Shown piece by piece: positions 25,458-43,231 of a stretch of 64,000 bases of DNA (its first letter is position 1; every line of letters starts with the position of its first letter). The stretch is from positions 64,001 through 128,000 of the forward strand of contig JANRKO010000092.1 of assembly GCA_033763455.1 (NCBI GenBank), in the 5' to 3' direction. The notes under the pieces are model-generated. The model was not told the origin of the DNA. It did not search any database and saw only the letters and a list, made by a program, of their open reading frames with translations. This DNA comes from Polyangiaceae bacterium (GTDB lineage: Bacteria; Myxococcota_A; Polyangia; Polyangiales; Polyangiaceae). The translations under genes and the position numbers were made by a program.

Positions 25458-26606
25458 TCAGCCCAGCACCGTATCGAGCTCGCCCACCGGCACGACTTCA
25501 ACATTCTTCTGCAGCGCGTAGCGCTTTGGGCCCGGGTATACGACGAACAGGCAGCGCAGCCCGAGGTCGGCCAGGGCCACGTGCATGGACTTGGTCATGC
25601 CGGGCGCGTCGCTCCATTTGACCTCGATCCCGATCGGCGCGCGGCCCCTTTGCACGAGGATGTCGAGCTCTGCCCCCGCGTGCGTCGCCCAGAAGTAAAC
25701 GTTGCGATCCCCGGTGCGACGGATCACTTCCTCCAAAACAAATCCTTCCCACGATGCCCCCAGCTTCGGGTGGCCCGTGAGCTCGCGGGTGCTGTGAATG
25801 CCCAAGAGCGCGTGCAACAAGCCTGAGTCGCGAATGAAGATCTTGGGAGCTTTTATCAGCCTCTTCTCCATGTTTGGCAGCCACGGCTGAAGCTGGCGAA
25901 CGATCAGCGCGCCACTGAGAATATCAAGATGGCGCTTCACCGTGGGATAGGTCTCGCCGAGCGCGGCGCTGAGCTCGGCGCCGTTCCAGAGTTGCGCGTG
26001 GCGGTGGGCGAGCATGGTCCACAGGCGCCGCAGCTGGACAGGCGATTTCACTCCAACCCCCAATTGGTTGATGTCTCGCTCCAGGAAGGTGCGGATGAAA
26101 TCCTCACGCCAGCCGAAGCTCTCGGCGTCGCCGCGCGCCAAATAGGAACGGGGAAACCCGCCGCGTGTCCACAGCTTTCGCTGATGCTCGGCGCCGACCT
26201 CCGCGAGCGAGAAGCCGCCGAGCTCGACGAAGCGAATACGCCCCGCGAGCGTCTCGGAGCCTTGCCGAAGCAGCTCCGGTGAGGCGCTGCCCAGTACCAA
26301 GAAGCGTGCGGGGCAGGGGCGACGATCAGCTAACACACGCAAAATGGGGAACAGCTCCGGCTGCCTTTGCACCTCATCTATGACCACGAGCCCGCGCAGG
26401 CCTTCGAGAGCGGTCATCGGCTCTGATAAGCGTTGTGCGTCCCGAGGGTCCTCGAGATCGAAGCGTTCGCCGCGCTGAGTCTTCAGGATCTGGGCGGCCA
26501 GGGTCGTCTTACCGGACTGCCGGGGCCCCAAGAGCGCCACCACCGGATTTCCGCGCAAGAGCGTCGAGACTTGGGCCAGCAGGTTAGGCCGAGCTAGCAC
26601 CTTCAT
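25458..26606 (-). CDS. ATP-binding protein, AAA_14 + DUF4143 type
   Basis: GPRQSGKT, IDEVQ, LGSAS, GGFP, KAPK..DSGL, WEGFV, ELD..IEVK. Confidence 0.9.
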   Translation of the reverse strand: MKVLARPNLLAQVSTLLRGNPVVALLGPRQSGKTTLAAQILKTQRGERFDLEDPRDAQRLSEPMTALEGLRGLVVIDEVQRQPELFPILRVLADRRPCPARFLVLGSASPELLRQGSETLAGRIRFVELGGFSLAEVGAEHQRKLWTRGGFPRSYLARGDAESFGWREDFIRTFLERDINQLGVGVKSPVQLRRLWTMLAHRHAQLWNGAELSAALGETYPTVKRHLDILSGALIVRQLQPWLPNMEKRLIKAPKIFIRDSGLLHALLGIHSTRELTGHPKLGASWEGFVLEEVIRRTGDRNVYFWATHAGAELDILVQRGRAPIGIEVKWSDAPGMTKSMHVALADLGLRCLFVVYPGPKRYALQKNVEVVPVGELDTVLG

Positions 26607-31217: not shown

Positions 31218-33386
31218 TTAGTGCAGGTGCACAGCGAATTCGGCGCGACCGATTCGCAACAGTGATTCATCCACCACGGGCAGCCACGCTCCGAGCGGTG
31301 CCTTGGTGCCGTTCACGTGTGTGCCGAGCTCAGCTTGCTCAGTGCGTACGAAAAGCCGCCCATCCTCCAGCTTAAGTGAGGCGTGGACGGGTGCGGCTTG
31401 GGTGGCATCAAGCACGATGCTGCAGTGCTGAAGATCGCTCCCAGCTCTGATTTCTGCGCCCGGCACGATGGTGAACACGCCCGGGGCTCCCTCTAGAATC
31501 GCACGCCTTCCCTGCGCGAGATCTTCGGCGGTGAGTGCCCGGGGCGGCTCTTGGCGTGCCTCCGCCCTATAGCCAGGCCCAGGCCCAGGCGGCGGCTGTT
31601 GCCCGCCGTAGCCCGGAGGAGGGCCGTAACCGCCTCCGGGAGGAGGGCCATAACCGCCGGGCCCTGTTGGACCGGAAGGACGCCGCTTCTTACCACTTTG
31701 CGCGATCACAATAATCAGTAAAAGCACTACGACAACGCCAAAGGCTCCTGCAAGTACGTAGAGGAGCGGAAACGGCGGCTCCGTCCCCGGCAGTTCCACA
31801 ATCGTATCGGCAGTGACACCACTGGCTCGGTGAGCTTTGTTGTCGTAAACCACCAAACGCACAATGGCTTGGGATCCCGAGCCTTGCAGCAGCTTGTCTT
31901 TATCGGGTGCTTGAAATTCGACCACCGTGTCATTGGCGCTTACCGTGGTCCCCTTCATTCCCATAGCGATGAGCTGCTGTTGCGCATTTTTGGCAGCTGC
32001 GATGTCTTTGCCGGTCAGCTCCTTGGGTACGGCTTGCCCTGCCGGGAGGAAATAGACCTCTGCTCGGGATGCGTCGCCACCCCAACAAAAATCACCGTAA
32101 ACTTTGAAGTTCCCGCCCGCGTAAACGCCGTTTTGGCGCTTGGCTGCATCCTTGGTGAGCTGGATGTTCACGTCGAGCGGCCAAGCCGTTGGGTCGACCC
32201 CGATTGGAACATCTTTAAATGTGTTGTCTCCACCGATCTGGGGCTTCACGTCGCTGAACACCAAGTTGAAAGTTTGGGTCACCGTGGGCGCCAAACAAGA
32301 AACTTTCCACTTGACGATGTGCATCTTGGCAAAGCGTGAGCGCACAGCGTTCACCACAGCGGAAGCGCGCGCGCCTTGGCCCTCCTGCACCACGGTGAAG
32401 AATCCGCCGATCTGGGGGTTGGCCAGGTTCTGCATGAACTCGAGCGAGTTCTGTCGAAATTCGTCGATGCTGCGGTAGGGAAAGAGGACGCTGATAACCG
32501 GCACCGGCACCTTGGGGGCAGCAGTATTGTTTTCGGGGAAGCGCCCTTGGGTCATGTATTGTTGAAGCTGCATCGCTCCGGGGCCGCTTGTTGCTGCATC
32601 CGCACCGCCGTAGCCATTCGAGAGCACCACCATCGCTTGGTGGAGCGGCACCGTGACAGTCTCGCCCACGTTTCCGAGCGCCCCGAAACCATCAGTGGCG
32701 GCCTGTTTGATGATGCTAAGCAAGCTGCGGGTGCGGCCTTGGCTCGGATAGGTACCGGTTACGCTATCGACGAACCCGGTTACTTTGTCTTTGGCGGCGG
32801 CGCTGTTCCACTGCGAGTCCTGCACGACTTGGCGGTCGTTGAAGAACATCACGTTAACAATGTCGTTGGGCCCCATGCTGGCAACGAAGCGGCGGGCAAC
32901 CTGCCGCGCATCGTCGAGGCTCTTGCCCATGCGCTTGTCTGCGTCGATGAGGATGAGCCAAGCGGTTCCTACTCCGGGCTCGGCCTGGCTATCGCCCCAC
33001 TTGGTGTGGCTCACATGCGTTGCGGGGCGTTCGGACCCCTCTACGAGCACGGTAAACAGGGCCTGTTTTTCTGGAAACGGAAATGGTGTGTAGAGCGCGT
33101 ACGGCTTTTCTAGTGCATCGCTCATGCACGAAAACTGAGCGCTACCGGTCAACGTCGCGCACGGCGCGATCACTGAACTTACGCGGGTGCTCTGGACGAT
33201 CTCCACCAAAGTGGTGAGCACTGGATTGCCTCCCCCTTGCGAAGCCCTGGGATCGACCCGAAGAATGTGTGCCTCGGGGGCAGCGTGGGCTCCAAATGGG
33301 AGGAGCCAGATGGCGCACAGGATAATGAGTGCCTGCCACGGCAGGGAGCGACGTGGAGCAAGAGCGGGGGAGCCTTTGGTAAACAT
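31218..33386 (-). CDS. Membrane-anchored vWA-like protein with cytoplasmic Pro/Gly-rich linker and FHA-like domain
   Basis: Signal peptide ..GAHA; WLILID..M, MFFND, VVLSNG (vWA-like, degenerate MIDAS); TM helix; GYGPPP repeats; AG..HA..GTHVNG..LRIG. Confidence 0.75.
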   Translation of the reverse strand: MFTKGSPALAPRRSLPWQALIILCAIWLLPFGAHAAPEAHILRVDPRASQGGGNPVLTTLVEIVQSTRVSSVIAPCATLTGSAQFSCMSDALEKPYALYTPFPFPEKQALFTVLVEGSERPATHVSHTKWGDSQAEPGVGTAWLILIDADKRMGKSLDDARQVARRFVASMGPNDIVNVMFFNDRQVVQDSQWNSAAAKDKVTGFVDSVTGTYPSQGRTRSLLSIIKQAATDGFGALGNVGETVTVPLHQAMVVLSNGYGGADAATSGPGAMQLQQYMTQGRFPENNTAAPKVPVPVISVLFPYRSIDEFRQNSLEFMQNLANPQIGGFFTVVQEGQGARASAVVNAVRSRFAKMHIVKWKVSCLAPTVTQTFNLVFSDVKPQIGGDNTFKDVPIGVDPTAWPLDVNIQLTKDAAKRQNGVYAGGNFKVYGDFCWGGDASRAEVYFLPAGQAVPKELTGKDIAAAKNAQQQLIAMGMKGTTVSANDTVVEFQAPDKDKLLQGSGSQAIVRLVVYDNKAHRASGVTADTIVELPGTEPPFPLLYVLAGAFGVVVVLLLIIVIAQSGKKRRPSGPTGPGGYGPPPGGGYGPPPGYGGQQPPPGPGPGYRAEARQEPPRALTAEDLAQGRRAILEGAPGVFTIVPGAEIRAGSDLQHCSIVLDATQAAPVHASLKLEDGRLFVRTEQAELGTHVNGTKAPLGAWLPVVDESLLRIGRAEFAVHLH

Positions 33387-33456
33387 ACGGGCCAAGACTC
33401 TAGAGGATTTTGCGCGCACCCGTGAGTCAGGGAGGGCGCCCGGGAGACCTAGACGC

Positions 33457-33487
33457 AAAAAAGCCCGCAAAGACATGCGGGCTTTTT
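33457..33487 (-). terminator. Intrinsic (likely bidirectional) terminator downstream of rplS
   Basis: AAAAAAGCCCGCA-AAGACA-TGCGGGCTTTTT. Confidence 0.85.
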
Positions 33488-33528
33488 CTGGTTTCCGCCG
33501 TTTGGGCGGCTGACCGAAGGCTACTTCT

Positions 33529-33888
33529 TCAACGATCTTTTTCGTCTCTTACGCGAGCAGCCTTACCTACGAGGTCACGCAAATAGAATAGGCGGCCGCG
33601 ACGAACGACGCCGCGAGAGAGCACCTCAATCTTATCGATGCGGGGTGAGTGGGAGGCGAAAGCACGCTCCACGCCAACGCCAAAGCTCACTTTGCGGACC
33701 GTGAAGGTCGAACGGCTCCCGGCACGATGGCGCTTGAGCACCACGCCCTTGAAGACCTGAACGCGCAACTTGTCGCCTTCGACGATTTTGTAGTGAACCG
33801 CTACGGTGTCCCCGACCTTAAAATCAGGCAAATCCGTGCGGATGAATTGGGCCTCGATGGGCGCGATGAGTGAGGCTGTGAGGGGCAT
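33529..33888 (-). CDS. rplS: 50S ribosomal protein L19
   Basis: [56 protein letters not shown]. Confidence 0.97.
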
Positions 33889-34065
33889 GACTTTCAAAAA
33901 ACTCCCTGGCCGAGTTAGAGGGCCCGGGTATCTAGGCGGTTGTTTCAGCGTCGTCAACCGAAACAGCCTTGTTTTTTGTTTGGCCGCAGCTCAAGTCGGC
34001 TTGACGTCGGAGGCACGGAGGGCTATCCCCCCGGCCCGTTTTCAGAATTGCAGGAATTTAAAGCC

Positions 34066-34722
34066 ATGAATCAGTTTCCGGGTGTCTTTGGTCGCAAAGT
34101 TGGCATGACACAGATTTTCACCGAGGACGGCACCGTCGTTCCCTGCACCGTGGTCGAGAGCAAGCCCGTCGTGGTGGGCAAGCGCACGAAGGAGAAAAAC
34201 GGCTACGACGCCCTCCTGCTCGGTCTGGGCCAGCGCAAGCCGAAGCACGTTAACAAGCCTCTTGCCGGGTTCTATAAGGGCATGAGCCACGCGCCTGCGG
34301 CTATCCTCCGTGAGCTCCGTTGCGCGGCAGAGTTCGCGTCCAAGTACGAGGTCGGACAGGAAGTGAAGCTCGACGAAGTTTTCCAAGAAGGCCAGTCCGT
34401 GGACGTCCAGGGTGTTACGCGCGGTCGCGGCTTCACCGGCGTCATGCGCCGCCACAACTTCAAAGGCGCTAAGCGCAGCCACGGTGCTCACGAGTATCAG
34501 CGCCACGGCGGTGCCATCGGTACCAACATGACGCCAGGTCGCGTCATGGCCGGCAAGCGCATGCCGGGACAGTACGGCAATGAGCAGGTCACCGTGCACA
34601 ATCAGCCCGTGGTCAAAGTCATGGCCGATCAAGGCCTCTTGTTGATCCGCGGCGCGATCCCGGGTGCCAAGAATGGCCTCGTTGTGGTGCGCGGCGCTGT
34701 TAAAGTTCGCAACATTAAGTAA
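34066..34722 (+). CDS. rplC: 50S ribosomal protein L3
   Basis: GRKVGMTQIF, GYDA, VDVQG.TRGRGFTGVMRRHNF, SHG, TPGRV..GKRMPG, LIRGAIPG. Confidence 0.97.
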   Translation: MNQFPGVFGRKVGMTQIFTEDGTVVPCTVVESKPVVVGKRTKEKNGYDALLLGLGQRKPKHVNKPLAGFYKGMSHAPAAILRELRCAAEFASKYEVGQEVKLDEVFQEGQSVDVQGVTRGRGFTGVMRRHNFKGAKRSHGAHEYQRHGGAIGTNMTPGRVMAGKRMPGQYGNEQVTVHNQPVVKVMADQGLLLIRGAIPGAKNGLVVVRGAVKVRNIK

Positions 34723-34813
34723 CAGGGATCCACGCCCGACAGATGCCGTTCGCACTTTGGCGATCGGCGCATTCCGCCAGGGCGAAACGGCTACCAGTGG
34801 CGCGATGCGCACA

Positions 34814-36229
34814 CTATGCCATGAGGAGTTCCCGTCCCCGGACTATGTGAACGCCGCCCAGGACGCGCGGCGCGCCTCTAGAAACCTCCGGGACTAACAG
34901 CGCTCGAACTACTGACTCCGCCTTGAAGCGCAAGGCGGGCGCGGGCAGCAGCTTACGTGCTGTCTCGTGAGCAAGCCGCTCAAGCTCGCGAACATCAAAG
35001 GGGCGCGCTGACCACTTCACCTCAGCGGTAAGGAGCCGTTTACCATCGTCCGACGCGCTAACGAGATCCCACTCGGGGGCGTTCCCTCGCCACCAGCGCG
35101 CGGGGGTGCGCCATGGTCCGAGCCGTCCGAGAGCTGAGCGGTGGTCGATATCAGTGACAAATGTTCGACACAATTCCTCCCAAGCCAAGGCAGCGAGAAT
35201 GGGCCAGTGCGTGCGCAAGAGGGCAATTCGCTCGTTAGCCTTACTCGAAGCCAAGCGTCCGCGATTGGGAGCTACCACTCGAAACCAGAGGCGCGCGAAC
35301 GGATCATTGAGCTTGTACAGGCTGCGTTTGCTGAGGTGTTCCGGCTCGCCGTAAGGAACTTCGCGGGAAATCAGACCTAGCTCCTGTAGGCGTTGGAGAG
35401 GCCGCGACAGTGAAGTAGCTTTCCATCCGATGCGACCTGCAATCTCCGAGGCCCGGTGCACCCCTTGCCCGACAGTATCAAGGATCGGACGCAGCTCAAC
35501 TGCTGAAGGGACTTCCTCCAGAAGCAGCCGATCGGGCTCCGTGTGCAGTGGCCCAAGCGGGTTCAAAACAAGGGCATCAATCTGAGATTCCACGCCGTTG
35601 CCAGCTTCGACGGCGAGCTCCCAGTAGCGCGGCACGCCACCCCAGGCCGCATACAACTGGACCAGCTCGATGATCGAACGCTTGCCGAAGGCGCTGGGCA
35701 GGTACCGCGGCGACAAAGGCTTGACCTCGAATAGCGCTTCGGCCCGACCATAAAGTGGCGCAGATGCGGCCAGCACCAAACCTTGCATCATGCGCTGGCT
35801 GGACCCAGCGAGTGCAAGCGTTAGCCGAGCGGCTTTGGCCTCGTGGTCGATGAAGCGCTGCAGCACACTCGCGATCTCCGGCGCTGCGAACGCCAGATAA
35901 GGGAGCTCGTCTATCACCAACGGGCCATGCCACTTTCGAGCTCGTGCATCGCGCGCAAGGCGCGAAAATAAACTCGCCCAATCCGGGTACTCAACGTCCG
36001 CGAACCCCGGCAACACCTGAGCAACAGTGCTGGCGAAGTAGCGTCGTTGCACCTCGGGCGCGGATTGATCGGCGACGGTATAGAGCCCCCCGTTTCGCTC
36101 TGCCCATTCAAGAAGCAGGCGAGTCTTCCCGATTCGCCGCCGCCCATAGACAACAGCTAACCGCCCCCCGGTACCGGAAAGCAGGCGCACCAGTACTTCC
36201 ATCTCCTCATTTCGGTTGATGAAGCGCAT
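34814..36229 (-). CDS. Archaeal-type AAA ATPase with wHTH and C-terminal PD-(D/E)xK (DUF234-like) domain
   Basis: FINR..E, YGRRRIGKT, IDELPY, AGSS, PLYGR, GGVPRY, YKLNDPF, WEELC, RWW..EWDLV..AEVKW. Confidence 0.88.
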   Translation of the reverse strand: MRFINRNEEMEVLVRLLSGTGGRLAVVYGRRRIGKTRLLLEWAERNGGLYTVADQSAPEVQRRYFASTVAQVLPGFADVEYPDWASLFSRLARDARARKWHGPLVIDELPYLAFAAPEIASVLQRFIDHEAKAARLTLALAGSSQRMMQGLVLAASAPLYGRAEALFEVKPLSPRYLPSAFGKRSIIELVQLYAAWGGVPRYWELAVEAGNGVESQIDALVLNPLGPLHTEPDRLLLEEVPSAVELRPILDTVGQGVHRASEIAGRIGWKATSLSRPLQRLQELGLISREVPYGEPEHLSKRSLYKLNDPFARLWFRVVAPNRGRLASSKANERIALLRTHWPILAALAWEELCRTFVTDIDHRSALGRLGPWRTPARWWRGNAPEWDLVSASDDGKRLLTAEVKWSARPFDVRELERLAHETARKLLPAPALRFKAESVVRALLVPEVSRGAPRVLGGVHIVRGRELLMA

Positions 36230-36413
36230 TATGCTGGGAAACATAATGCAATACCGCATAATATGTCAAATGGCGTGCGCGTCCGCGGCGGAAAACGCCC
36301 GTACCATGAAAATCCTCAGCCGAGATGAGCGCTTTGACAAGAAGAGCGGTGGGGCTCGCGAACGAACATGGCGCCCATCGCAACAAGCTGAGCTTGAGCG
36401 TTGATCCCTTTGA

Positions 36414-36560
36414 TCAGGGGCAGCCGATGTCTACGTCTAAAGTGAGCACGGGTGCCCCTTGTAGGGCTGCCGCGACACCACCCACGACCATAAACTCCAC
36501 ACGGTGCTCGCACAGCACTCGGAGCATTTTTCCCCAATCGACTACCGCCATTGGTGCCAT
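36414..36560 (-). pseudogene. Truncated nucleotidyltransferase (MNT/DUF6036-like), 48-aa remnant
   Basis: Manual translation MAPMAVVDWGKMLRVLCEHRVEFMVVGGVAAALQGAPVLTLDVDIGCP*: GG and DxD motifs present, then a premature stop. Confidence 0.7.
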
Positions 36561-36578
36561 GCGCAGAAGCGGAATCCG

Positions 36579-36689
36579 CTACTCCACGGCGGGAATACGA
36601 CGGACTGAAGCCAGCGAGTTCAGGAAATTTTCCACGGCCTTGAGGCGTTCGGTAGGCGTTAAACCAAGATATCCCGATTCGTCGGTCAC
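36579..36689 (-). CDS. Tiny partner protein (36 aa) upstream of the nucleotidyltransferase remnant
   Basis: GTG overlaps the GGDEF stop (GTGA); LGLTPTERLKAVENFL resembles the L.LTP.ERL peptides that often precede such NTases. Confidence 0.45.
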   Translation of the reverse strand: MTDESGYLGLTPTERLKAVENFLNSLASVRRIPAVE

Positions 36690-37414
36690 AAAGGACGCTC
36701 TATGCGTGCGCCACAGTTGGGGCAGAATAGCTCGCCCTGATGAGGGCTCCCGAGCGGAACTTCCAAAGTGAACGACGAATTGCACTCGCGACAGTCATCG
36801 CGAATGCTGCGGCGCTGCGCCTTCTCGACGTCAGGAGAGTAGCGGATAACGCAGTTTCGGCCTTGGATTTTGGCCGTTCCCACGGTTGCCTCGAGCATGC
36901 GCATTGCAACCCGATGTGTGAGAATCTCATCGCCCGTATCGTCAGAAGTCATCCACCCAATGCTGACAGTGCAGCTCATCGTGCCATGCTCGGTTGAAAC
37001 CGCAATGCCTTCGATTTCTGCGCGCAAGCGCTGAAGCGCGTCGTGAATTGAGCCTTCGACGACATTGGGGCCTTTAGGCCCAAGCAGATAGAACTCATCT
37101 CCGTGTGCACGAATGGGCATGGTACTAGCGATGTAGTCCTCAAACGCTGCCAGCCGCTTCCCAATCTTCTGAAGTAGGCCGTCCGCTAGTTCGTACCCAA
37201 ATTTGTCGTTGACGCGCTTGAAGTAATCGACCTCGATGAATGCAAACCAGAAAGGCTCACCGCGTTCCAGTGCGTTCCTCAGGCTTTCTGCGAGCGCCTG
37301 ATCATTGCCGAGCCCGGTGAGCCGATCACGGAGCTGCTCCTCGCGGACAAGCGCTTCAATCTGCCGTTGCAGCTCCCCAAGCGCGGCTTCCAACTTCTGA
37401 GTCTGCTGTGTCAA
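36686..37414 (-). CDS. Non-canonical GGDEF-domain protein (HGDEF) with N-terminal coiled coil and C-terminal Zn ribbon
   Basis: RDRLTGLGN, IEVDYFKRVNDKFGYELAD, RAHGDEF, TVSIG, AKIQGRN; CRECNSSF..CPNCG; TTG start overlaps the upstream stop (TTGA). Confidence 0.85.
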   Translation of the reverse strand: MTQQTQKLEAALGELQRQIEALVREEQLRDRLTGLGNDQALAESLRNALERGEPFWFAFIEVDYFKRVNDKFGYELADGLLQKIGKRLAAFEDYIASTMPIRAHGDEFYLLGPKGPNVVEGSIHDALQRLRAEIEGIAVSTEHGTMSCTVSIGWMTSDDTGDEILTHRVAMRMLEATVGTAKIQGRNCVIRYSPDVEKAQRRSIRDDCRECNSSFTLEVPLGSPHQGELFCPNCGARIERPL

Positions 37415-37719
37415 CTCAAGGCACCGGAAATCTCGAGCGCGAGTCGGCGGGGGTTTTCGTAAGGCTGCCCCTCCACTGGGACATCAACACTCACCATCCG
37501 CCCGTCGGGAAGCTCGCTCGTGACGACCCAAACGGGTGCTCCGTGCCGCCTTCCCAATTCTGCAGAGACAAGGCGAAACCCACGTTCTCGGAGCTCATCT
37601 CTCAGCGCGTTGTCAAACGACCTGCGCGCCGGCTCTCTCGATGAGCCAGCAAGGGCCAGCAAGCCGAGGGCGGCAAGACCACCTGCCACCCACATTGCCG
37701 AGCTATCCTGCTTCGCCAC
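37411..37719 (-). CDS. Small hypothetical protein, single N-terminal TM helix plus alpha/beta domain
   Basis: WVAGGLAALGLLALAG hydrophobic helix; 4-bp overlap with the GGDEF gene. Confidence 0.7.
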   Translation of the reverse strand: MAKQDSSAMWVAGGLAALGLLALAGSSREPARRSFDNALRDELRERGFRLVSAELGRRHGAPVWVVTSELPDGRMVSVDVPVEGQPYENPRRLALEISGALS

Positions 37720-37854
37720 ACATCTATCCTAGGCTGTGGTGCACGAACCGGCAAGCACGAGCGGGGGAGACTCTGACTTCGAGAAAAGGCGGATATCATT
37801 CGGTTTATTTATAGTTCATTGAATATGTGCGCGATGATGTATACGGTGGGTATA

Positions 37855-40800
37855 GTGAAAAATTCATTCGATCTGAAGTCATCTCGCACCCGCCTTTCAT
37901 TAACCCAGGCGGCGCTCGCCGACCGTCTAGGGCGTGCAACAAACACGATCGCTCGCTGGGAGCGGGGGGAACTTGCGGTGCCGGAAGACGTTCGGCGCGT
38001 CGTCGAAGCGTTAATTTCAGGACCGGCTGCAAGGCTTCCCGTCCCCGACGTTGTCACGCTCGACACGTTTCATTCAGATATTGTTGCTGCTCTGCATGAG
38101 CACGTTGACCCCGCTGTGTTCGAGGAGTGCGCAGCTAACCTACTGAGAGAGCAATGGCCTAAACTTGTCCCCGTTCCGGGCGGAAGCGATGACGGGTTCG
38201 ACGGAGCTGTCGCCGGGGATGAAGGCACGAGGCCATGGCCCTTAATTGTCACGACGGATCGAAAGCCGGAGCGCAATCTGAGCCGTAGCCTCAAGCAGGC
38301 GATTACCAAGGGGCACAACCCTAAGGTCGCAATTTTTGCAACATCGCGAGCGCTGACGCCTGGCCAGCGGCGCAAACTTAACGACGCTGCTACGGCGTGT
38401 GGGGTAGTGCTTCAGCAGATCTATGACCGTTCCTGGTTCGCGGCCGCTCTGTACCGACATCCAGAGTGGTGCAATAAGCTGCTCGGCCTTACAGGAACCC
38501 CAGATCCTCTGTCTAGATTGCCGCTCTTGCTTAGGCTGGGGGGCACACATGAGATGCTCGGGCGATCATCCGAGCTCGCTAAAGCGCGCGAAACCGAGTC
38601 CGACGTGATCCTCTTAGGCGGTCCGGGGTCAGGGAAGACCATGCTGCTCCTACGGCTTGCTGATGACGGCTACTTTTTGTCGGACGGTGACCGAAATGCG
38701 GTGACGAATTCGATTCGTCGCCACTCGCCGAGGGTCGTGATTGTGGACGACGCGCACGATAACTTCACGCAGTTCGGTTTGTTGGTGAAGCTACGCAGGC
38801 AGCTAGGTGCTAAGTTTCGGATTGTCGTAAGCGCGTGGCCGCCCTACCTCGAAGATCTCCGTGAACATCTACCTAATGCCGAGGTTGTGAGTCTAGGCGA
38901 GCTCGACGCTGACGTAGTCGCAGATATCGTTCGTTCCATAGTGCCGAATCTTCCAAACCAAGCCATCAAAGTAATCGTGCGGCAAGCTGATGGTCGCCCT
39001 GGCCTCGCAGCTACTCTGGCACATATGTGCATTGATGGACGCTACCGAGATGTAATGACTGGCGATGCTGTTTATGAGCGCTTGGGCAGCTACGTGGCGA
39101 AGGACCGAGAGTTGTTGGGTTGCTTTGCGGTGGCAGGTGACGCTGGCCTCCAGCTGGAGGATGCCGCAACGTTCCTTGGCCGACCGAAGGATGACGTGCA
39201 ACGGGCGTTGACGCGCCTAGCTGCTGGTGGCGTCATTCGCGTCAGCGGCAGCAGACACTTTTCAGTCTGGCCGGAGCAATTGCGGTACGTCCTCGTTCGG
39301 GAAGTCTTTTTTCACGAGCGCAATGGGCTCGACTATGAACAGTTGGTTGCAAAGGTTTTCAATCGAAGTGCATGGCTTCGTGTGCTCATTGGGGCAACCC
39401 GTTCAGGAGCGCAGGTGCCGCGTCTCCAGGATAGGTTGGAGGAAGTGAACCAAGTGCAGCTCTGGTGCGAATACGCTTCCCTAGATCCGCAAGCCGCGAG
39501 CTACGTTCTCGACAAGCATCCAGAAATGCTCGTGGAAGCGGCGCCAGAGCTCTTGTGGCACGTGCCGGATCGCGCACTTTCGAAGCTGCTCGACGCGGCC
39601 GCTCGGGGAGGGGCGCCTAGTGGTCGTGACGCTCCTGCGCTGACGGCGTTGCGAACGTGGCTGAGAGATTCCTCAATGGACGAGAGAGTTGTCATTGCGA
39701 GGAGTCAGGAGGCCGCAAAGCAGGTTCTGAAGTGGATCAAGCGAAATGAGAACCATGCCGGAGCAATCGTCTTCTGTATCGCGATGAGTCCGATTTTGCA
39801 GGTGACAGAGAGTGATCCGGGCCGAGGTATGACGTTGACCTATCGCCGTGGTGCTGTGGGTGATTGGGGTATTGGGCAACTCACAGCGCTTTGGGATGCA
39901 GCACTACCGGACCTAATGCGCGCTCGTTCGCTGCCATGGGGTCACCTCTTGGACCTAGTAAATGAGTGGGCTCGCCCTGACGGCGGGATCCCCATAACTG
40001 CCGAGGCGAGGCGCATGATGCGCGACCTTGCCTGCAAAATGGTGCGTGACGTCGTCCCGCTCGCGAAGGCTCATCCAGGTGCGCAGCGAAGGCTGGCGGA
40101 AGTCGCTCGGACATTGGAGATCTCGGGGGAGGTGGACTTCCCCGACGTGGGGGCCGACGTGGGCGCGCTTTTTCCGCGCTTGGACAGGCACTCGGTCGAC
40201 GACTTAGAGGCCGTCATGAAGAGTCATGTAAAGAGGGTTCGGGAATGGGCGCGGGTCCGCATCGATGTAAAAGACGTTGGCGAGCTGGTCCGATCCGTGC
40301 TTTCGCTCCAACAGCAACTGAACGAAGCGAAAGCTCGATCCGACAACTACGTGTGGGCGGCCTTCGACGAGTTTGCCCGGGGTACGTCAACGCCTACGGA
40401 GTGGGTCGATGCTTTAGTTGCAGAGCGTGCGGACCCCGCTCTGGTATGGCCCTTCGTACGACGGATCATAGACGAGGGCAGCGAGCTTGCGACGCTATTG
40501 GGGCTTCTGAAGGAGGACCGCTATACGGGATTACTTGCCGAAGGCGCCGTCATGTCAAAGAGTGCCCACGCCGAGGTCGTCGAATGGGTTGATTGCAAGG
40601 CCGCTGACTACGTTGAACAAATCTCCTGTCAAATCCGGGTGGGCAATGTTGGCGATGATCGAGTGCTCGCATTTCTCCATCACCGCGACCCACGCGTTCG
40701 CGCTGCAATTGCGGTGGCATATTATGTCCGGGAGAAGAATCCTTCCGACGAGCTCGGGAGTGCTTGGCGCAATGCGATAATCGACACGGCTCGGGTCCCC

Positions 40801-41412
40801 GAACTACCGAGTCAGTACGAGTACTGGTTAAAACAGATTCTGACGCAGAACGTTGAGCTCGGTTCAGAATGGCTAAAGGCTCTCCTTGAGATCGAGAACG
40901 ATGATCTTTCCTTTCACGATATCGGTCTCGAAGTCGCTGACAGGCTCGCGTTCGCGGCAAAGGCGGATATTCTTCACTCGGCAAAGTTTGGCGTGCATCA
41001 GGCTGAGTTTCTCACGCATCTGGTGGGCGGAGATCCGAAGCTCTATGAAATGCTCCTGGAGCGTCGAGATCTCGCGGAGTATCACCTTGAGCCGCTCGCT
41101 TGCCGCTCGCGACTCGTGGACTCATTCTCCGGACCGATGAACCCGCGGAGGGGGTGGGCGGAGTTGTCAGCAATGGCGTTGGAACGAGGCTTCTCCGAGG
41201 ATGAAGTGTTTAGAGCGATCCTGCCACGGTCGTGGGGCTTCACGGGCAGCGAAGTCCCTCTATGGCAGGGCTGGCGCGATGATTTTGAAAAATTTGAATC
41301 CCATTCCGAGCCAGCGGTGCGCCGAGTCGCCTCCCGTGGGAAGAGCGAGATGGATCGACGTCTTGCCGCAGCTCGGGAGCGTGAACGGATGGACGCCGTC
41401 CGCGGGGTCTGA
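37855..41412 (+). CDS. XRE-HTH + Mrr-like nuclease fold + P-loop NTPase (STAND-like) + long helical domain; putative defence protein (start uncertain, 37819-37855)
   Basis: LTQAALADRLG..NTIARWERGE; FEECAANLL..VPGGSDDGFDG; GGPGSGKT; VVIVDDAHD; ADGRPGLA; ~700-aa helical C-terminus. Confidence 0.8.
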   Translation: MKNSFDLKSSRTRLSLTQAALADRLGRATNTIARWERGELAVPEDVRRVVEALISGPAARLPVPDVVTLDTFHSDIVAALHEHVDPAVFEECAANLLREQWPKLVPVPGGSDDGFDGAVAGDEGTRPWPLIVTTDRKPERNLSRSLKQAITKGHNPKVAIFATSRALTPGQRRKLNDAATACGVVLQQIYDRSWFAAALYRHPEWCNKLLGLTGTPDPLSRLPLLLRLGGTHEMLGRSSELAKARETESDVILLGGPGSGKTMLLLRLADDGYFLSDGDRNAVTNSIRRHSPRVVIVDDAHDNFTQFGLLVKLRRQLGAKFRIVVSAWPPYLEDLREHLPNAEVVSLGELDADVVADIVRSIVPNLPNQAIKVIVRQADGRPGLAATLAHMCIDGRYRDVMTGDAVYERLGSYVAKDRELLGCFAVAGDAGLQLEDAATFLGRPKDDVQRALTRLAAGGVIRVSGSRHFSVWPEQLRYVLVREVFFHERNGLDYEQLVAKVFNRSAWLRVLIGATRSGAQVPRLQDRLEEVNQVQLWCEYASLDPQAASYVLDKHPEMLVEAAPELLWHVPDRALSKLLDAAARGGAPSGRDAPALTALRTWLRDSSMDERVVIARSQEAAKQVLKWIKRNENHAGAIVFCIAMSPILQVTESDPGRGMTLTYRRGAVGDWGIGQLTALWDAALPDLMRARSLPWGHLLDLVNEWARPDGGIPITAEARRMMRDLACKMVRDVVPLAKAHPGAQRRLAEVARTLEISGEVDFPDVGADVGALFPRLDRHSVDDLEAVMKSHVKRVREWARVRIDVKDVGELVRSVLSLQQQLNEAKARSDNYVWAAFDEFARGTSTPTEWVDALVAERADPALVWPFVRRIIDEGSELATLLGLLKEDRYTGLLAEGAVMSKSAHAEVVEWVDCKAADYVEQISCQIRVGNVGDDRVLAFLHHRDPRVRAAIAVAYYVREKNPSDELGSAWRNAIIDTARVPELPSQYEYWLKQILTQNVELGSEWLKALLEIENDDLSFHDIGLEVADRLAFAAKADILHSAKFGVHQAEFLTHLVGGDPKLYEMLLERRDLAEYHLEPLACRSRLVDSFSGPMNPRRGWAELSAMALERGFSEDEVFRAILPRSWGFTGSEVPLWQGWRDDFEKFESHSEPAVRRVASRGKSEMDRRLAAARERERMDAVRGV

Positions 41413-41620
41413 GGGAACGCGGCCGCTCAAGAGAAGGCGCCGCCAACTGCCACTTAATCCCCCAGGGATCGCGTCCCAAAGGAGGCCCGTTTTGGAAGGC
41501 GCAAAAAACCCTGAAGCCGTTGATTCGCCTCGGACCCTCCACAGGCACAGAGCTAGAAAAGCACCCCGTGTCCGTAATCCTCCTAGCTTTTCCGTGCCGC
41601 CTCCGGCAAGGAACCCCATC

Positions 41621-43231
41621 GTGGCAGAGTTGCTGAACACAGGGTGGCCTGAACGTCGCGTGCTCAGCGACGAAAACGGCTTGCTAGTGGTGGATAAGCC
41701 CGCCGGAATTCCCGTGCATGGCGGCGACGAAGGCTTGAAAGACGACGTGGTTTCGCGCTTGGCGGGGTGGTTCCGCGCGCACGGTGAATCAGAATATTTG
41801 GGCGTGCATCAGCGGCTTGATAAAGAGACCTCGGGGGTCCTCGTTTTTACGCGCAGCGAGCACAGAAATCGCGATGTGGCCGAGGCGTTCGAGTCTCATA
41901 CGGTGCAGAAGAAGTACGTCGCGCTCGCGTCGTTGGCCGGCGTGAAAGCTGGGCAACTCAAGCGTTTGGAGGGCACCTGGGAGGATAGATTGAGCAAACC
42001 GGAGAAGGGGCGAGTGAGCGTGGCGCGAACGGGAGGGCTTGAAGCCGTTACCCGGTGCCGAGTGCTCGAACAGTGTGGCCAGCGCGTCCTCATGGAGCTC
42101 TCTCCCGTCACCGGCCGCACCCATCAGTTGCGTGTGCAAGCGAGCGCACGAGGCATTCCCATTGTGGGGGATAGCATTTACGGAGGGGAGCCCGCCTTGC
42201 GTTTGATGCTGCACGCTCACGAGCTCAAGCTGCCGAAGCAAAAGGCTTGGGTGGCGCCTATTCCGGGGGTGTTCCGCGATTGGTTGTACCAGCGGCCTTT
42301 TGATTTTGAAACCGAGGAGCTGAAGGGGCGCCTTCTGGATTCGTTTTTTCAGCGCGAGCCGCTTTCCGCCGAGAGCAACACGTATCGGCTAGTGAATGAT
42401 CTGGGCGATCAATTGCCAGGCGTATGTATCGATAAATTTGGGGATTCCGCCGTGGTTTCCCTGTTTGATGAGCGCGCCTCGGCAGCCGGTGAAAAGCTGA
42501 GTGGGCTCTTGTTGGACATGGGATTTTCGCGCGTGCGTGTGGAGCATCGGGAGCGCGCCGTCACCAAAGTTCTCTCTGCACCAGCAGTGTTCACGGTGCA
42601 GGAGCATGGCGCCAACTTTGAGGTGCGGTTTGACGACGACTCATCCGTTGGGCTGTTTCTCGATCAACGCGAAAATCGCCAACGCCTGCGGGCATTGTCG
42701 AAGGGGCTCCGGGTGCTCAACTTGTTTTGCTACACGGGGTCCTTCAGCGTTGCGGCGGCGCTCGGTGGAGCGCGCCAAGTGGTGAGCGTCGATCTGTCGG
42801 GTAGGTACCTTGAATGGGCGAAGCGCAACTTCGAGCTCAATGGTCTTACGGTTGATAGGCACGAGTTCATTCAAGCGGATGCTACGGTGTGGCTTGAACA
42901 GGCAGCTCGGCAGAAGAGGGTCTTCGATTTCATCGTGCTGGATCCTCCGAGCTTCTCAAGTGTGGGCAAACGGAAGACCTTCAGTGTTGCTCGGGATTAC
43001 GCCGAGACGGCCTCCCAATGCCTCCGCCTATTGGCCCCAGGAGGCCAGCTTTTGGCCGTCACTAATCACCGAAAAACACCGCTACCTAAGCTCAGATCCG
43101 AGCTTCGAAAGGCCGCGGCGAGCGCGGGGCGCACCGTGCTTCAGCTTAAGGATATCCGCTCGGGTCGCGATTGCCCCGACTTGCTGAACGAGCCTCATCC
43201 GAGCAAAAGTGTGCTCGTGCGCGTAAAGTGA
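41621..43231 (+). CDS. RluA-family pseudouridine synthase fused to an RlmK/RlmI-like SAM-dependent methyltransferase
   Basis: VVDKPAG, HQRLDKETSG, TGRTHQLRV, PIVGD.IYG, LHA; then GLFLDQRENR, VLNLFCYTGSFS, SVDLS, LDPPSF. Confidence 0.9.
   Translation: MAELLNTGWPERRVLSDENGLLVVDKPAGIPVHGGDEGLKDDVVSRLAGWFRAHGESEYLGVHQRLDKETSGVLVFTRSEHRNRDVAEAFESHTVQKKYVALASLAGVKAGQLKRLEGTWEDRLSKPEKGRVSVARTGGLEAVTRCRVLEQCGQRVLMELSPVTGRTHQLRVQASARGIPIVGDSIYGGEPALRLMLHAHELKLPKQKAWVAPIPGVFRDWLYQRPFDFETEELKGRLLDSFFQREPLSAESNTYRLVNDLGDQLPGVCIDKFGDSAVVSLFDERASAAGEKLSGLLLDMGFSRVRVEHRERAVTKVLSAPAVFTVQEHGANFEVRFDDDSSVGLFLDQRENRQRLRALSKGLRVLNLFCYTGSFSVAAALGGARQVVSVDLSGRYLEWAKRNFELNGLTVDRHEFIQADATVWLEQAARQKRVFDFIVLDPPSFSSVGKRKTFSVARDYAETASQCLRLLAPGGQLLAVTNHRKTPLPKLRSELRKAAASAGRTVLQLKDIRSGRDCPDLLNEPHPSKSVLVRVK

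Follow-up and report, generated by a model that had tools for sequence, protein, structure and literature searches.

What do two overlapping genes on the minus strand of a Polyangiaceae genome do, and do they form a signalling system of their own? The question is raised by positions 36686-37719 of the stretch of DNA analysed here (assembly GCA_033763455.1, contig JANRKO010000092.1, positions 64,001 to 128,000), hereafter called the window, which is 64,000 nucleotides long. A reading of the letters and of the translated open reading frames (ORFs), here called the sequence-only reading, had proposed that a small membrane protein and a GGDEF-like cyclase form a new nucleotide-signalling defence module, possibly together with a divergently transcribed gene. 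The two genes form a conserved and mobile operon that encodes a minimal cyclase and a partner with a new domain, and we consider the chances about evenly balanced that the pair is a new GGDEF-based signalling module for defence against, or conflict with, phages or other mobile elements. The features of the pair and its junctions are the following:

37411-37719, minus strand: gene 1, partner protein of 102 amino acids, GTG start (ORF and its translation)

36686-37414, minus strand: gene 2, minimal GGDEF-family cyclase of 242 amino acids, TTG start (Pfam GGDEF match above the cut-off)

37411-37414, minus strand: TTGA junction, in which the TGA stop of gene 1 overlaps the TTG start of gene 2 (from the sequence)

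37720-37818, no strand: intergenic region upstream of gene 1, shared with a divergent gene for a protein of 1,197 amino acids (from the sequence)

The sequence agrees with the description given in the sequence-only reading, according to which a small protein with a single hydrophobic segment (102 amino acids) overlaps by a TTGA with a sensor-less protein that contains an HGDEF motif and a zinc ribbon (242 amino acids). The overlap suggests that the translation of the two genes is coupled. Both ORFs have many homologs, and they are therefore not chance reading frames. The promoter of the pair is presumably located within 37720-37818, although a scan of 36200-38000 for consensus promoters and terminators, which is uninformative, identified no sigma-70-like site in this region. 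A search of 33000-42000 against Rfam gave no match.

The gene-2 protein matches the Pfam family GGDEF (PF00990) at residues 29-164 with 67.7 bits, against a cut-off of 23.8, and TIGR00254 with a score of 60.2, against a cut-off of 37.4. It contains no other domain above the cut-offs and no sensor domain. The signature motif is HGDEF, which differs from the GG[D/E]EF motif with both glycines, and the C-terminal end contains a CxxC-x19-CxxC motif, to which zinc-ribbon models match only below their cut-offs. The only match in PADLOC is to PDC-M14A (E 0.008), which covers the ribbon (protein P0002). The structure predicted with AlphaFold2 (AF2) from an alignment of 42 sequences has a predicted local distance difference test score (pLDDT) of 92 and consists of an N-terminal helix (residues 3-27), the GGDEF fold and a C-terminal ribbon of two hairpins. 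A Foldseek search with this model retrieved 175 chains in the PDB at E<=1e-3, the top ones being SiaD (with its activator SiaC), DgcB (with a coiled coil), PleD and WspR.

With the cyclase as query, a word-indexed search identified 84 proteins of 175-299 amino acids at E<=4e-22, including the one in the window, beyond which the scores drop to 1.5e-8 and the matches are ordinary multi-domain GGDEF proteins. Of the 84 family proteins, 82 contain the HGDEF motif and 77 the two CxxC pairs; all 48 distinct locus copies have HGDEF as well. In the alignment of 42 sequences, the HGDEF motif, the EVDxFK metal site and the second cysteine pair are invariant. A phmmer alignment to PleD places E61 and D63 of the gene-2 protein at D327 and D329, K66 at K332, N69 at N335, D78 at D344, R102 at R366, H104 at G368, D106 and E107 at E370 and E371, and K182 and R186 at K442 and R446. 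We take D327, D329, K332, N335, D344, R366, E370, K442 and R446 in PleD to be the residues that bind the metal and the phosphates and contact the guanine; their equivalents are invariant or nearly so in the 42 sequences. The residue that corresponds to D344 is an aspartate in 70 and an asparagine in 10 of the 84 family members. An alternative assignment of the guanine-reading aspartate to a variable position, ‘N37+9’, was rejected, as the alignment to PleD instead gives N69 and D78, which are both conserved. According to the same alignment, the RxxD I-site is absent from its position five residues before HGDEF in the gene-2 protein.

The gene-2 product is a true GGDEF-fold cyclase that has a complete set of catalytic residues and no sensory domain, and the most economical reading is that it is an active cyclase that uses GTP. 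Since the catalytic residues and the guanine-reading asparagine and aspartate are kept, the product is likely to be cyclic di-GMP (c-di-GMP) or another G-containing dinucleotide. The sequence-only reading had noted altered motifs. The retained guanine-reading residues speak against a new chemistry, as does an engineered HGDEF version of VCA0965 from V. cholerae, which naturally has AGDEF and which still raised the cellular level of c-di-GMP (PMC3974145); the histidine therefore does not rule out activity.

The N-terminal end of the gene-1 protein consists of a short acidic tail, a hydrophobic stretch rich in glycine and alanine (approximately residues 9-25) and a basic stretch with a run of arginines. 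Behind this basic linker, the AF2 model contains a domain of approximately 75 amino acids with the order helix, three strands and helix (helix 26-45, strands 49-58, 61-69 and 75-81, helix 90-101). The pLDDT is above 90 at residues 30-102, while the hydrophobic N-terminus is poorly modelled. Because the tail in front of the hydrophobic segment is acidic and the stretch that follows it is basic, the positive-inside rule suggests that the domain is cytoplasmic, and the anchor would thus be oriented with its N-terminus out and its C-terminus in. A profile search of 1.84 billion representative proteins identified 290 homologs at E<=1e-3 and 151 at E<=1e-10, nearly all of which are 80-140 amino acids long; the gene-1 protein in the window was matched by the family profile at 1.5e-28. 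The best conserved residues among the 151 sequences are W64 (99%), F35 (93%), R57 (91%) and R32 (87%). R57 and W64 flank the first hairpin and would be plausible sites of contact with a ligand or another protein.

No family in Pfam, PADLOC or NCBIfam matches the gene-1 protein (P0001, with 0 PADLOC families). The searches for similar folds gave nothing at E<=1e-3 with Foldseek against the PDB, where the weak top rows are domains of the double-stranded RNA-binding type, nothing at E<=1e-3 in BFVD, and no usable match in the ESM Atlas. The best score in a wide VIA-align search was a Z of 5.7, to a hibernation factor, the N-terminus of PmbA and Gp1.2 of phage T7, which is within a range that is considered uninformative. 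The partner is a new domain of about 75 amino acids that is usually tethered to the membrane by a single glycine-rich helix. The N-terminal 17-mer was strongly hydrophobic in 88, weakly in 12 and not at all in 37 of the best 150 representatives, while 13 could not be parsed, most of which are visibly hydrophobic. In a few partners the domain is duplicated in tandem or the N-terminus is extended in another way, and Pfam finds nothing in the longer variants, including the N-terminal extension in locus L150. For example, the domain is duplicated behind a coiled coil in P0253, is preceded by unrelated soluble domains in P0220 and P0259, and in P0190 comes after an N-terminal region that contains at least two hydrophobic segments. 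A search for fusions of the partner and the cyclase gave a single unrelated protein of 841 amino acids, which is weak evidence of their absence. This metagenomic protein (P0264) contains Pfam PF22335 and a GGDEF domain that is 33% identical to the query, and falls outside the cyclase family.

The conservation of the pair was examined in the loci that encode members of the cyclase family. When one genome per species was scanned, 22 genome loci (L013-L034) were obtained, which according to their record titles are mostly from Polyangiales and other Myxococcota, with one from Solibacteraceae and one from ‘Oligoflexia’. The metagenome loci were found with the alignment of the cyclase, the partner alignment having no sufficiently conserved stretch. 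A small ORF is located directly upstream of the cyclase on the same strand in 64 of the 67 testable loci. It is a homolog of gene 1 in 21 of the 22 genome loci, the one without it being L029, and such an ORF is present in 43 of the 45 metagenome loci with enough upstream sequence, the ones without it being L141 and L156. The distance from the stop of gene 1 to the N-terminus of the cyclase is -17 to +44 nucleotides in all 55 measurable loci, and no more than 20 nucleotides in 33 of them. The pairwise distances of the partners and the cyclases are strongly correlated in 48 distinct pairs (Mantel r 0.949; none of 2000 permutations reached this value), which shows that the two genes were inherited together without swapping of partners. 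The mean distance is 0.68 for the partner and 0.56 for the cyclase. These results bear out the proposal that the membrane protein and the cyclase form a real module, since the genes co-occur, are adjacent and diverge together: the two genes are a conserved, self-contained operon that is inherited, gained and lost as a unit.

The operon is rare, patchy and horizontally mobile. Among 40 relatives of the window genome (G000), all of which have GGDEF genes, an intact ortholog was identified only in G001 (45% identity). The copy in a genus mate, G002 (L003/L034), is a pseudogene, as the cyclase is interrupted by two in-frame stops and its motif is HVDEF instead of HGDEF, while the partner ORF upstream is open. 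Both copies are located at another site than in the window genome, in the order bioB, tRNA-Phe, the pair and ferredoxin. A comparison of G001 with G003, which lacks the pair, reveals a clean indel of 1,202 bp that starts 30 bp after the tRNA-Phe gene and holds only the two genes; no clear target-site duplication was seen in this alignment. In the window, the pair is located between a conserved gene for a protein of 256 amino acids, next to rplS, and an RluD/methyltransferase gene. These two genes directly adjoin each other in three genus mates, and the segment 34814-41412 is therefore a strain-specific insertion of approximately 6.6 kb. The partner profile matches at least five of 401 genomes sampled across the phylum, including the window genome; this is a floor, as 11 first-look candidates were scored per genome. 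Genes from mobile elements (a serine recombinase, DDE or IS1595 transposases and tyrosine integrases) are present at L013, L021, L030 and L154. As a separate observation, SMODS domains were found in two of five genomes that carry the pair, and the matches above the Pfam cut-off in the window genome are at C48:9469-9945 and C39:216454-216819, C48 and C39 being contigs.

To learn more about the genes that surround the pair, we called 247 ORFs within 6 kb of 21 genome loci (greedy longest ORFs with a high GC content at third codon positions) and searched all of them against Pfam and 131 of them against PADLOC (PADLOC-DB v2.0.0), the omitted ones being those with clear housekeeping matches in Pfam. 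Ten further metagenome contexts with flanks of 4 kb added 50 ORFs, and 20 random windows of 12.7 kb from G000, with 159 ORFs of at least 150 amino acids, served as a control. Shared contexts were merged (L024 with L025, and L020 with L026 and L119), which gave 29 independent contexts. The surroundings vary widely from locus to locus. In L031 (1629-13832), the pair is placed inside a type I restriction-modification locus, with HsdS, HsdM and a YhcG/PDC-S02 nuclease on one side and three genes of unknown function followed by an HsdR of 1,303 amino acids on the other. In L150 (10-8120), it is placed between a Hachiman HamB-like helicase (6e-130, cut by the edge of the locus) and a Shosta ShosA-like DprA protein (5e-66), and the hydrophobic segment of the partner is replaced by an N-terminal extension of approximately 165 amino acids that has no match in Pfam. 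McrB and McrC are encoded directly upstream of the pair in L120. Further neighbors are a type I HsdR, SoFic and HEC-01A, all near full length (L016), PDC-M24B and two integrases (L021), a GmrSD-type Orf5 (1.4e-168), PDC-S06 (1.5e-153) and DUF5131/PDC-M41B (L024), a type I methylase (L025), AbiEi and, by Pfam, a zeta toxin (L033), PDC-S15/FRG (L144) and, in the window, a gene for an ATPase_2+DUF234 protein that matches PDC-S27 at 2.9e-35. The contexts L018, L021 and L030 are near genes for capsule or polysaccharide.

Matches to generic domains were set aside, and the genes counted as defence-specific were those for restriction, Hachiman, Shosta, AbiE and PADLOC candidates within 4-6 kb. By this rule, which was set after the matches had been seen, a defence-specific gene is present in 9 of the 29 contexts and in 1 of the 20 windows from G000 (Fisher two-sided p = 0.034). 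Eight of the control windows contain no match and seven contain matches at E<=1e-20, which, with the exception of one PDC-S01, are to protein kinases, sigma-54 activators, ABC ATPases and an AAA+ protein. The enrichment of defence neighbors that the sequence-only reading had proposed as a check is thus seen with the specific rule, while the rule is post hoc and the count of any match does not discriminate, and we regard the enrichment as suggestive, not settled. Two neighbors stand apart from this count. In a single lineage of loci, namely L020 (7163-7468), L026 (6561-6866) and L119 (2685-3335), a cREC_REC domain (‘cyclic-phosphate processing receiver’; Pfam E ~1e-27) is encoded by the gene that is divergent from the pair, and a gene for an S-adenosylmethionine (SAM) methyltransferase is located just downstream of the pair in L020 and L026. 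The cREC_REC gene could be an add-on specific to this lineage or only shared synteny.

The insertion in the window contains the two-gene module together with an ATPase_2+DUF234 gene, a putative nucleotidyltransferase remnant and a gene with helix-turn-helix (HTH) and NTPase domains, as follows:

34814-41412, no strand: strain-specific insertion of ~6.6 kb (flanks directly adjacent in three genomes from the same genus)

34814-36259, minus strand: ATPase_2+DUF234 gene (PADLOC PDC-S27, 2.9e-35, near full length)

36414-36560, minus strand: ORF of 48 amino acids, putative nucleotidyltransferase remnant (read by eye)

36579-36689, minus strand: tiny ORF of 36 amino acids from a GTG, with a GTGA overlap with the stop of the cyclase (no Pfam match)

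37819-41412, plus strand: divergent HTH/NTPase gene, 1,197 amino acids (HTH_31 just above the Pfam cut-off)

The divergent gene had been described as an XRE-HTH/Mrr-like/NTPase gene. Its product matches HTH_31 with 27.9 bits against a cut-off of 27, and to this extent the description stands, whereas NACHT (24.2 against 26.7 bits) and nSTAND_NTPase5 (17.3 against 34) remain below their cut-offs and the restriction-endonuclease-like match in PADLOC at residues 98-192 is weak (2.3e-05). A sequence search of the PDB gave no match, and the long C-terminal region is also without a family match; the protein may be an undescribed sensor of the STAND type (signal transduction ATPases with numerous domains) in its own right. 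Only part of the ‘AAA-nuclease and nucleotidyltransferase block’ that had been seen around the pair could be recovered, namely the single ATPase_2+DUF234 gene, the product of which has a 31%-identical paralog on contig C45 of the same genome, while the nucleotidyltransferase is a putative remnant of 48 amino acids recognized by eye only. This ORF gave no match in NCBIfam, its frame being outside the Pfam and PADLOC scans. Together, the ORFs of 48 and 36 amino acids resemble the leftovers of a further two-gene element, small and now degraded, located between the ATPase gene and the pair. Elsewhere in the window, a single ORF at 41420-43231 (plus strand) encodes PseudoU_synth_2 and SAM methyltransferase domains and is 67-68% identical in three genus mates, and a protein of 382 amino acids at 25458-26606 (minus strand), approximately 8 kb from the insertion, matches PDC-S01 at 2.2e-83 and is contained in one of the random control windows.

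If the pair acts in defence, the cyclase would dimerize via its N-terminal stalk helix and produce a cyclic dinucleotide, which is probably c-di-GMP or a different G-containing species. The partner might use its cytoplasmic domain to bind the nucleotide or to bind the cyclase directly, with Arg32, Arg57 and Trp64 as candidate contacts, and the output might be growth arrest or damage to the membrane through the glycine-rich helix, which would harm the invader or the infected cell. The zinc ribbon is the only candidate for a site of input. The signal might be made upon infection, as in CBASS or Pycsar, or it might be constant and its loss be sensed, as in Panoptes or Panoptoo, in which case the system would fire once the nucleotide is sequestered or degraded by phage proteins. 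A c-di-GMP network already exists in the host, and the signalling would therefore have to be local within a complex of the cyclase and its partner, or the product would have to be something other than c-di-GMP. A stronger version, which we put forward tentatively and hold to be somewhat improbable, is that the pair is an anti-phage signalling system, the first with a true GGDEF cyclase at its core, in which a G-containing dinucleotide is read locally by a new receptor domain of about 75 amino acids, perhaps as a guard in the style of Panoptes.

A role in defence is given roughly equal chances for and against because the distribution and the neighborhoods are defence-like and the architecture parallels Panoptes and Panoptoo; it is placed no higher because the guanine specificity is kept in a host with 13 GGDEF matches, some partners are soluble and the enrichment statistic is soft. 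Several observations weigh against it. With the guanine-reading residues kept and 13 GGDEF matches in G000, a diffusible c-di-GMP alarm would cross-talk with housekeeping signalling. PADLOC matches nothing in the gene-1 protein and only the zinc ribbon in the gene-2 protein, at 0.008, and the fold of the partner matches no known nucleotide receptor or effector (best Z of 5.7; none in Foldseek at E<=1e-3). The hydrophobic N-terminus is missing from 37 of the 150 partners, and although several of these are gene calls that start inside the segment, about 20 seem to be truly soluble. Pairing with the cyclase persists in the approximately one fifth of the partner family from which the segment is missing; at L127, L130 and L160, for example, a partner of 86 amino acids, with a stop codon just 5' of its start, still adjoins the cyclase. 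Since soluble partners remain paired with the cyclase, damage to the membrane cannot be the universal output.

The neighborhoods also provide counterarguments. When any PADLOC match at E<=1e-20 is counted, 10 of 22 family loci and 7 of the 20 control windows are positive, which is no discrimination, and this count fails because kinase, sigma-54 activator, ABC and AAA+ domains match defence models everywhere. The rule for defence neighbors is post hoc, only 131 of the 247 ORFs at family loci were included in PADLOC, the number of contexts is small, the control is from one genome, and the flanks are unequal (6 kb for the genome loci and the controls, 4 kb for the metagenome loci). No defence gene is present in 20 of the 29 contexts. 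Finally, no member of the family was identified in IMG/VR viral contigs, GenBank phages or PLSDB plasmids; the phage and plasmid collections gave only generic GGDEF matches with an identity of approximately 36% or less.

Many of the same observations would be explained if the pair were an accessory regulatory unit, in which the membrane-tethered protein turns an ordinary diguanylate cyclase on or off by binding to its stalk or GGDEF domain. The cyclase would then supply the usual c-di-GMP network of the cell for surface polysaccharide, motility or development, and the pair would have no role in immunity. The catalytic and guanine-reading residues are kept as expected for such an enzyme, the host has 13 GGDEF matches to which it would be added, and HGDEF is compatible with c-di-GMP synthesis (PMC3974145). 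The best structural and NCBIfam match is SiaD (7e6g, 4e-15; NF038266, 8.5e-22), a stalk-helix cyclase under the control of the small partner SiaC, the tight coupling of stop and start fits a stoichiometric complex, soluble variants of the partner exist, and the three contexts with capsule or polysaccharide genes point in the same direction. However, a regulator of this kind is difficult to reconcile with a pair that is very rare and patchy (at least 5 of 401 genomes), that forms a clean two-gene indel next to a tRNA gene and has decayed in one genus mate, and that recurs in or beside genes for restriction-modification, McrBC, GmrSD and Hachiman-like and Shosta-like proteins. Moreover, no sensory domain supplies the input, and neither SiaC nor any Pfam family shows detectable similarity to the partner. 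We regard this explanation as unlikely, though as a serious competitor to a role in defence.

Mobility and patchiness are also what a toxin-antitoxin-like or addiction module would display, in which a glycine-rich membrane toxin is neutralized by the cyclase or its product, or with the roles reversed, and which stabilizes the islands that host it. The small two-gene operon with overlapping stop and start fits this idea, as do the neighbors related to toxin-antitoxin and abortive infection systems (zeta toxin and AbiEi in L033, Fic in L016) and the faster evolution of the partner than of the enzyme (mean distance 0.68 against 0.56). Yet simple neutralization requires no enzyme with fully conserved catalytic residues, soluble partners without the hydrophobic segment persist, and Pfam, PADLOC and NCBIfam detect no homology to known families of toxins or antitoxins. 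In addition, the cyclase is broken in G002 while the partner ORF is open, which is hard to square with a toxin that is not neutralized, and we consider such a module improbable. By far the least credible is a wider system of three or four components that includes the tiny ORF and the divergent HTH/nuclease/NTPase gene, as the sequence-only reading had suggested with its three-gene chain and its link to a STAND-like gene. The genes do adjoin, they share a divergent region of approximately 100 bp and all lie in one insertion of 6.6 kb, and the ORF with the GTGA overlap is present. But tblastn found neither the ORF of 36 amino acids, which also lacks a Pfam match, nor the protein of 1,197 amino acids in any of the 72 family loci, the insertion of 1.2 kb in G001 holds two genes only, and the neighbors of the pair change from locus to locus. 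Since neither gene recurs, the tiny ORF and the HTH/NTPase gene are placed outside the module, and the link to the STAND-like gene is abandoned.

To our knowledge, a link to anti-phage immunity has been established for all other major families of enzymes that synthesize nucleotide signals, namely CD-NTase, Cas10/mCpol, class III cyclase, TIR and, since 2026, the diadenylate cyclases (DAC). If a role in defence holds true, a family of housekeeping c-di-GMP enzymes would also have been recruited to immunity, able to coexist with a native c-di-GMP network, and the small domain would be a new nucleotide receptor or regulator of a cyclase. With two genes and ~1.1 kb, the module is compact and offers a directly testable candidate for GGDEF-based defence. 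If the pair is only regulatory, it would still represent a new architecture of a partner-controlled cyclase. The question would also arise of how a G-dinucleotide immune signal is kept insulated from the c-di-GMP network of the host; according to PMC13725321, which cites Morehouse 2020, defence and housekeeping signalling by c-di-GMP are considered to be mutually exclusive. A 2026 preprint by the authors of Panoptoo remarks that GGDEFs may in future prove to be exapted for anti-phage use (PMC13640721). The combination of genes, which had not been recognized in the sequence-only reading, also appears to be new by our searches, as no PADLOC model matches the pair and the literature search gave no described system of such kind; it revealed no defence system with a GGDEF enzyme and a small membrane protein and no natural HGDEF family, the supplementary tables of Panoptes and Panoptoo, which may list the family, being outside this search.

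Among known enzymes, the cyclase comes closest to SiaD of Pseudomonas aeruginosa, both among solved structures and among NCBIfam models, although the NCBIfam score of 77.7 is far below the cut-off of 290. Like the cyclase of the pair, SiaD consists of a stalk helix and a GGDEF domain without a sensor, and its activity is controlled by a separate small protein, SiaC. However, SiaD has no zinc ribbon and contains GGDEF rather than HGDEF, and the partner of the pair is membrane-anchored and has no related Pfam family. SiaD belongs to the SiaABCD operon, whereas the pair is a mobile islet of two genes. The canonical and Hypr GGDEF enzymes PleD, WspR, DgcB and GacA share with the cyclase the domain, the catalytic residues and the asparagine and aspartate that contact the guanine. 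They differ from the cyclase family in that the latter has a histidine in place of the first glycine (82 of 84), a zinc ribbon and an obligate small partner gene, and lacks the I-site and a sensory domain. The Hypr enzymes have a serine at the position of the guanine-reading aspartate, which is an asparagine in 10 of the 84 family members.

Type I CBASS and Pycsar also combine an enzyme for a nucleotide second messenger with a small membrane protein in defence islands. The cyclase is a CD-NTase/SMODS protein in CBASS and an adenylate-cyclase-like enzyme in Pycsar, unlike in the pair, where Pfam detects no SMODS domain in either protein, which sets it apart from CBASS. No SAVED, STING, Cap15 or cNMP-binding domain was detected in the partner with Pfam, PADLOC and the fold searches. 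The closest parallels in architecture are Panoptes, which consists of the mCpol cyclase OptS and the effector OptE with two transmembrane segments and a beta domain, and Panoptoo, which consists of the minimal DAC cyclase PanS and an S2TM-beta effector. Both are two-gene operons that encode a sensor-less cyclase and a small membrane protein, and they are described as rare and widely scattered, like the pair, and as placed in defence contexts, and mCpol, Cas10 and GGDEF as RRM-palm enzymes with a related cyclase fold (PMC12657218, PMC11974786, 10.64898/2026.08.10.743927). In contrast to mCpol, in which the motif is nearly lost, and to DAC, the enzyme of the pair is a full member of the GGDEF family with HGDEF, a stalk helix and a zinc ribbon. 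Its partner has one hydrophobic segment and a domain with a helix, three strands and a helix, rather than two transmembrane segments and a beta-rich Cap15-like domain; Foldseek and VIA-align gave no Cap15-like match to the partner, although a missing match does not exclude one. The pair also differs in that the partner gene comes first and in that some partners are soluble. Among the two-gene modules for nucleotide signalling, the pair would accordingly represent a new clade of enzymes with a new partner domain and a predicted function.

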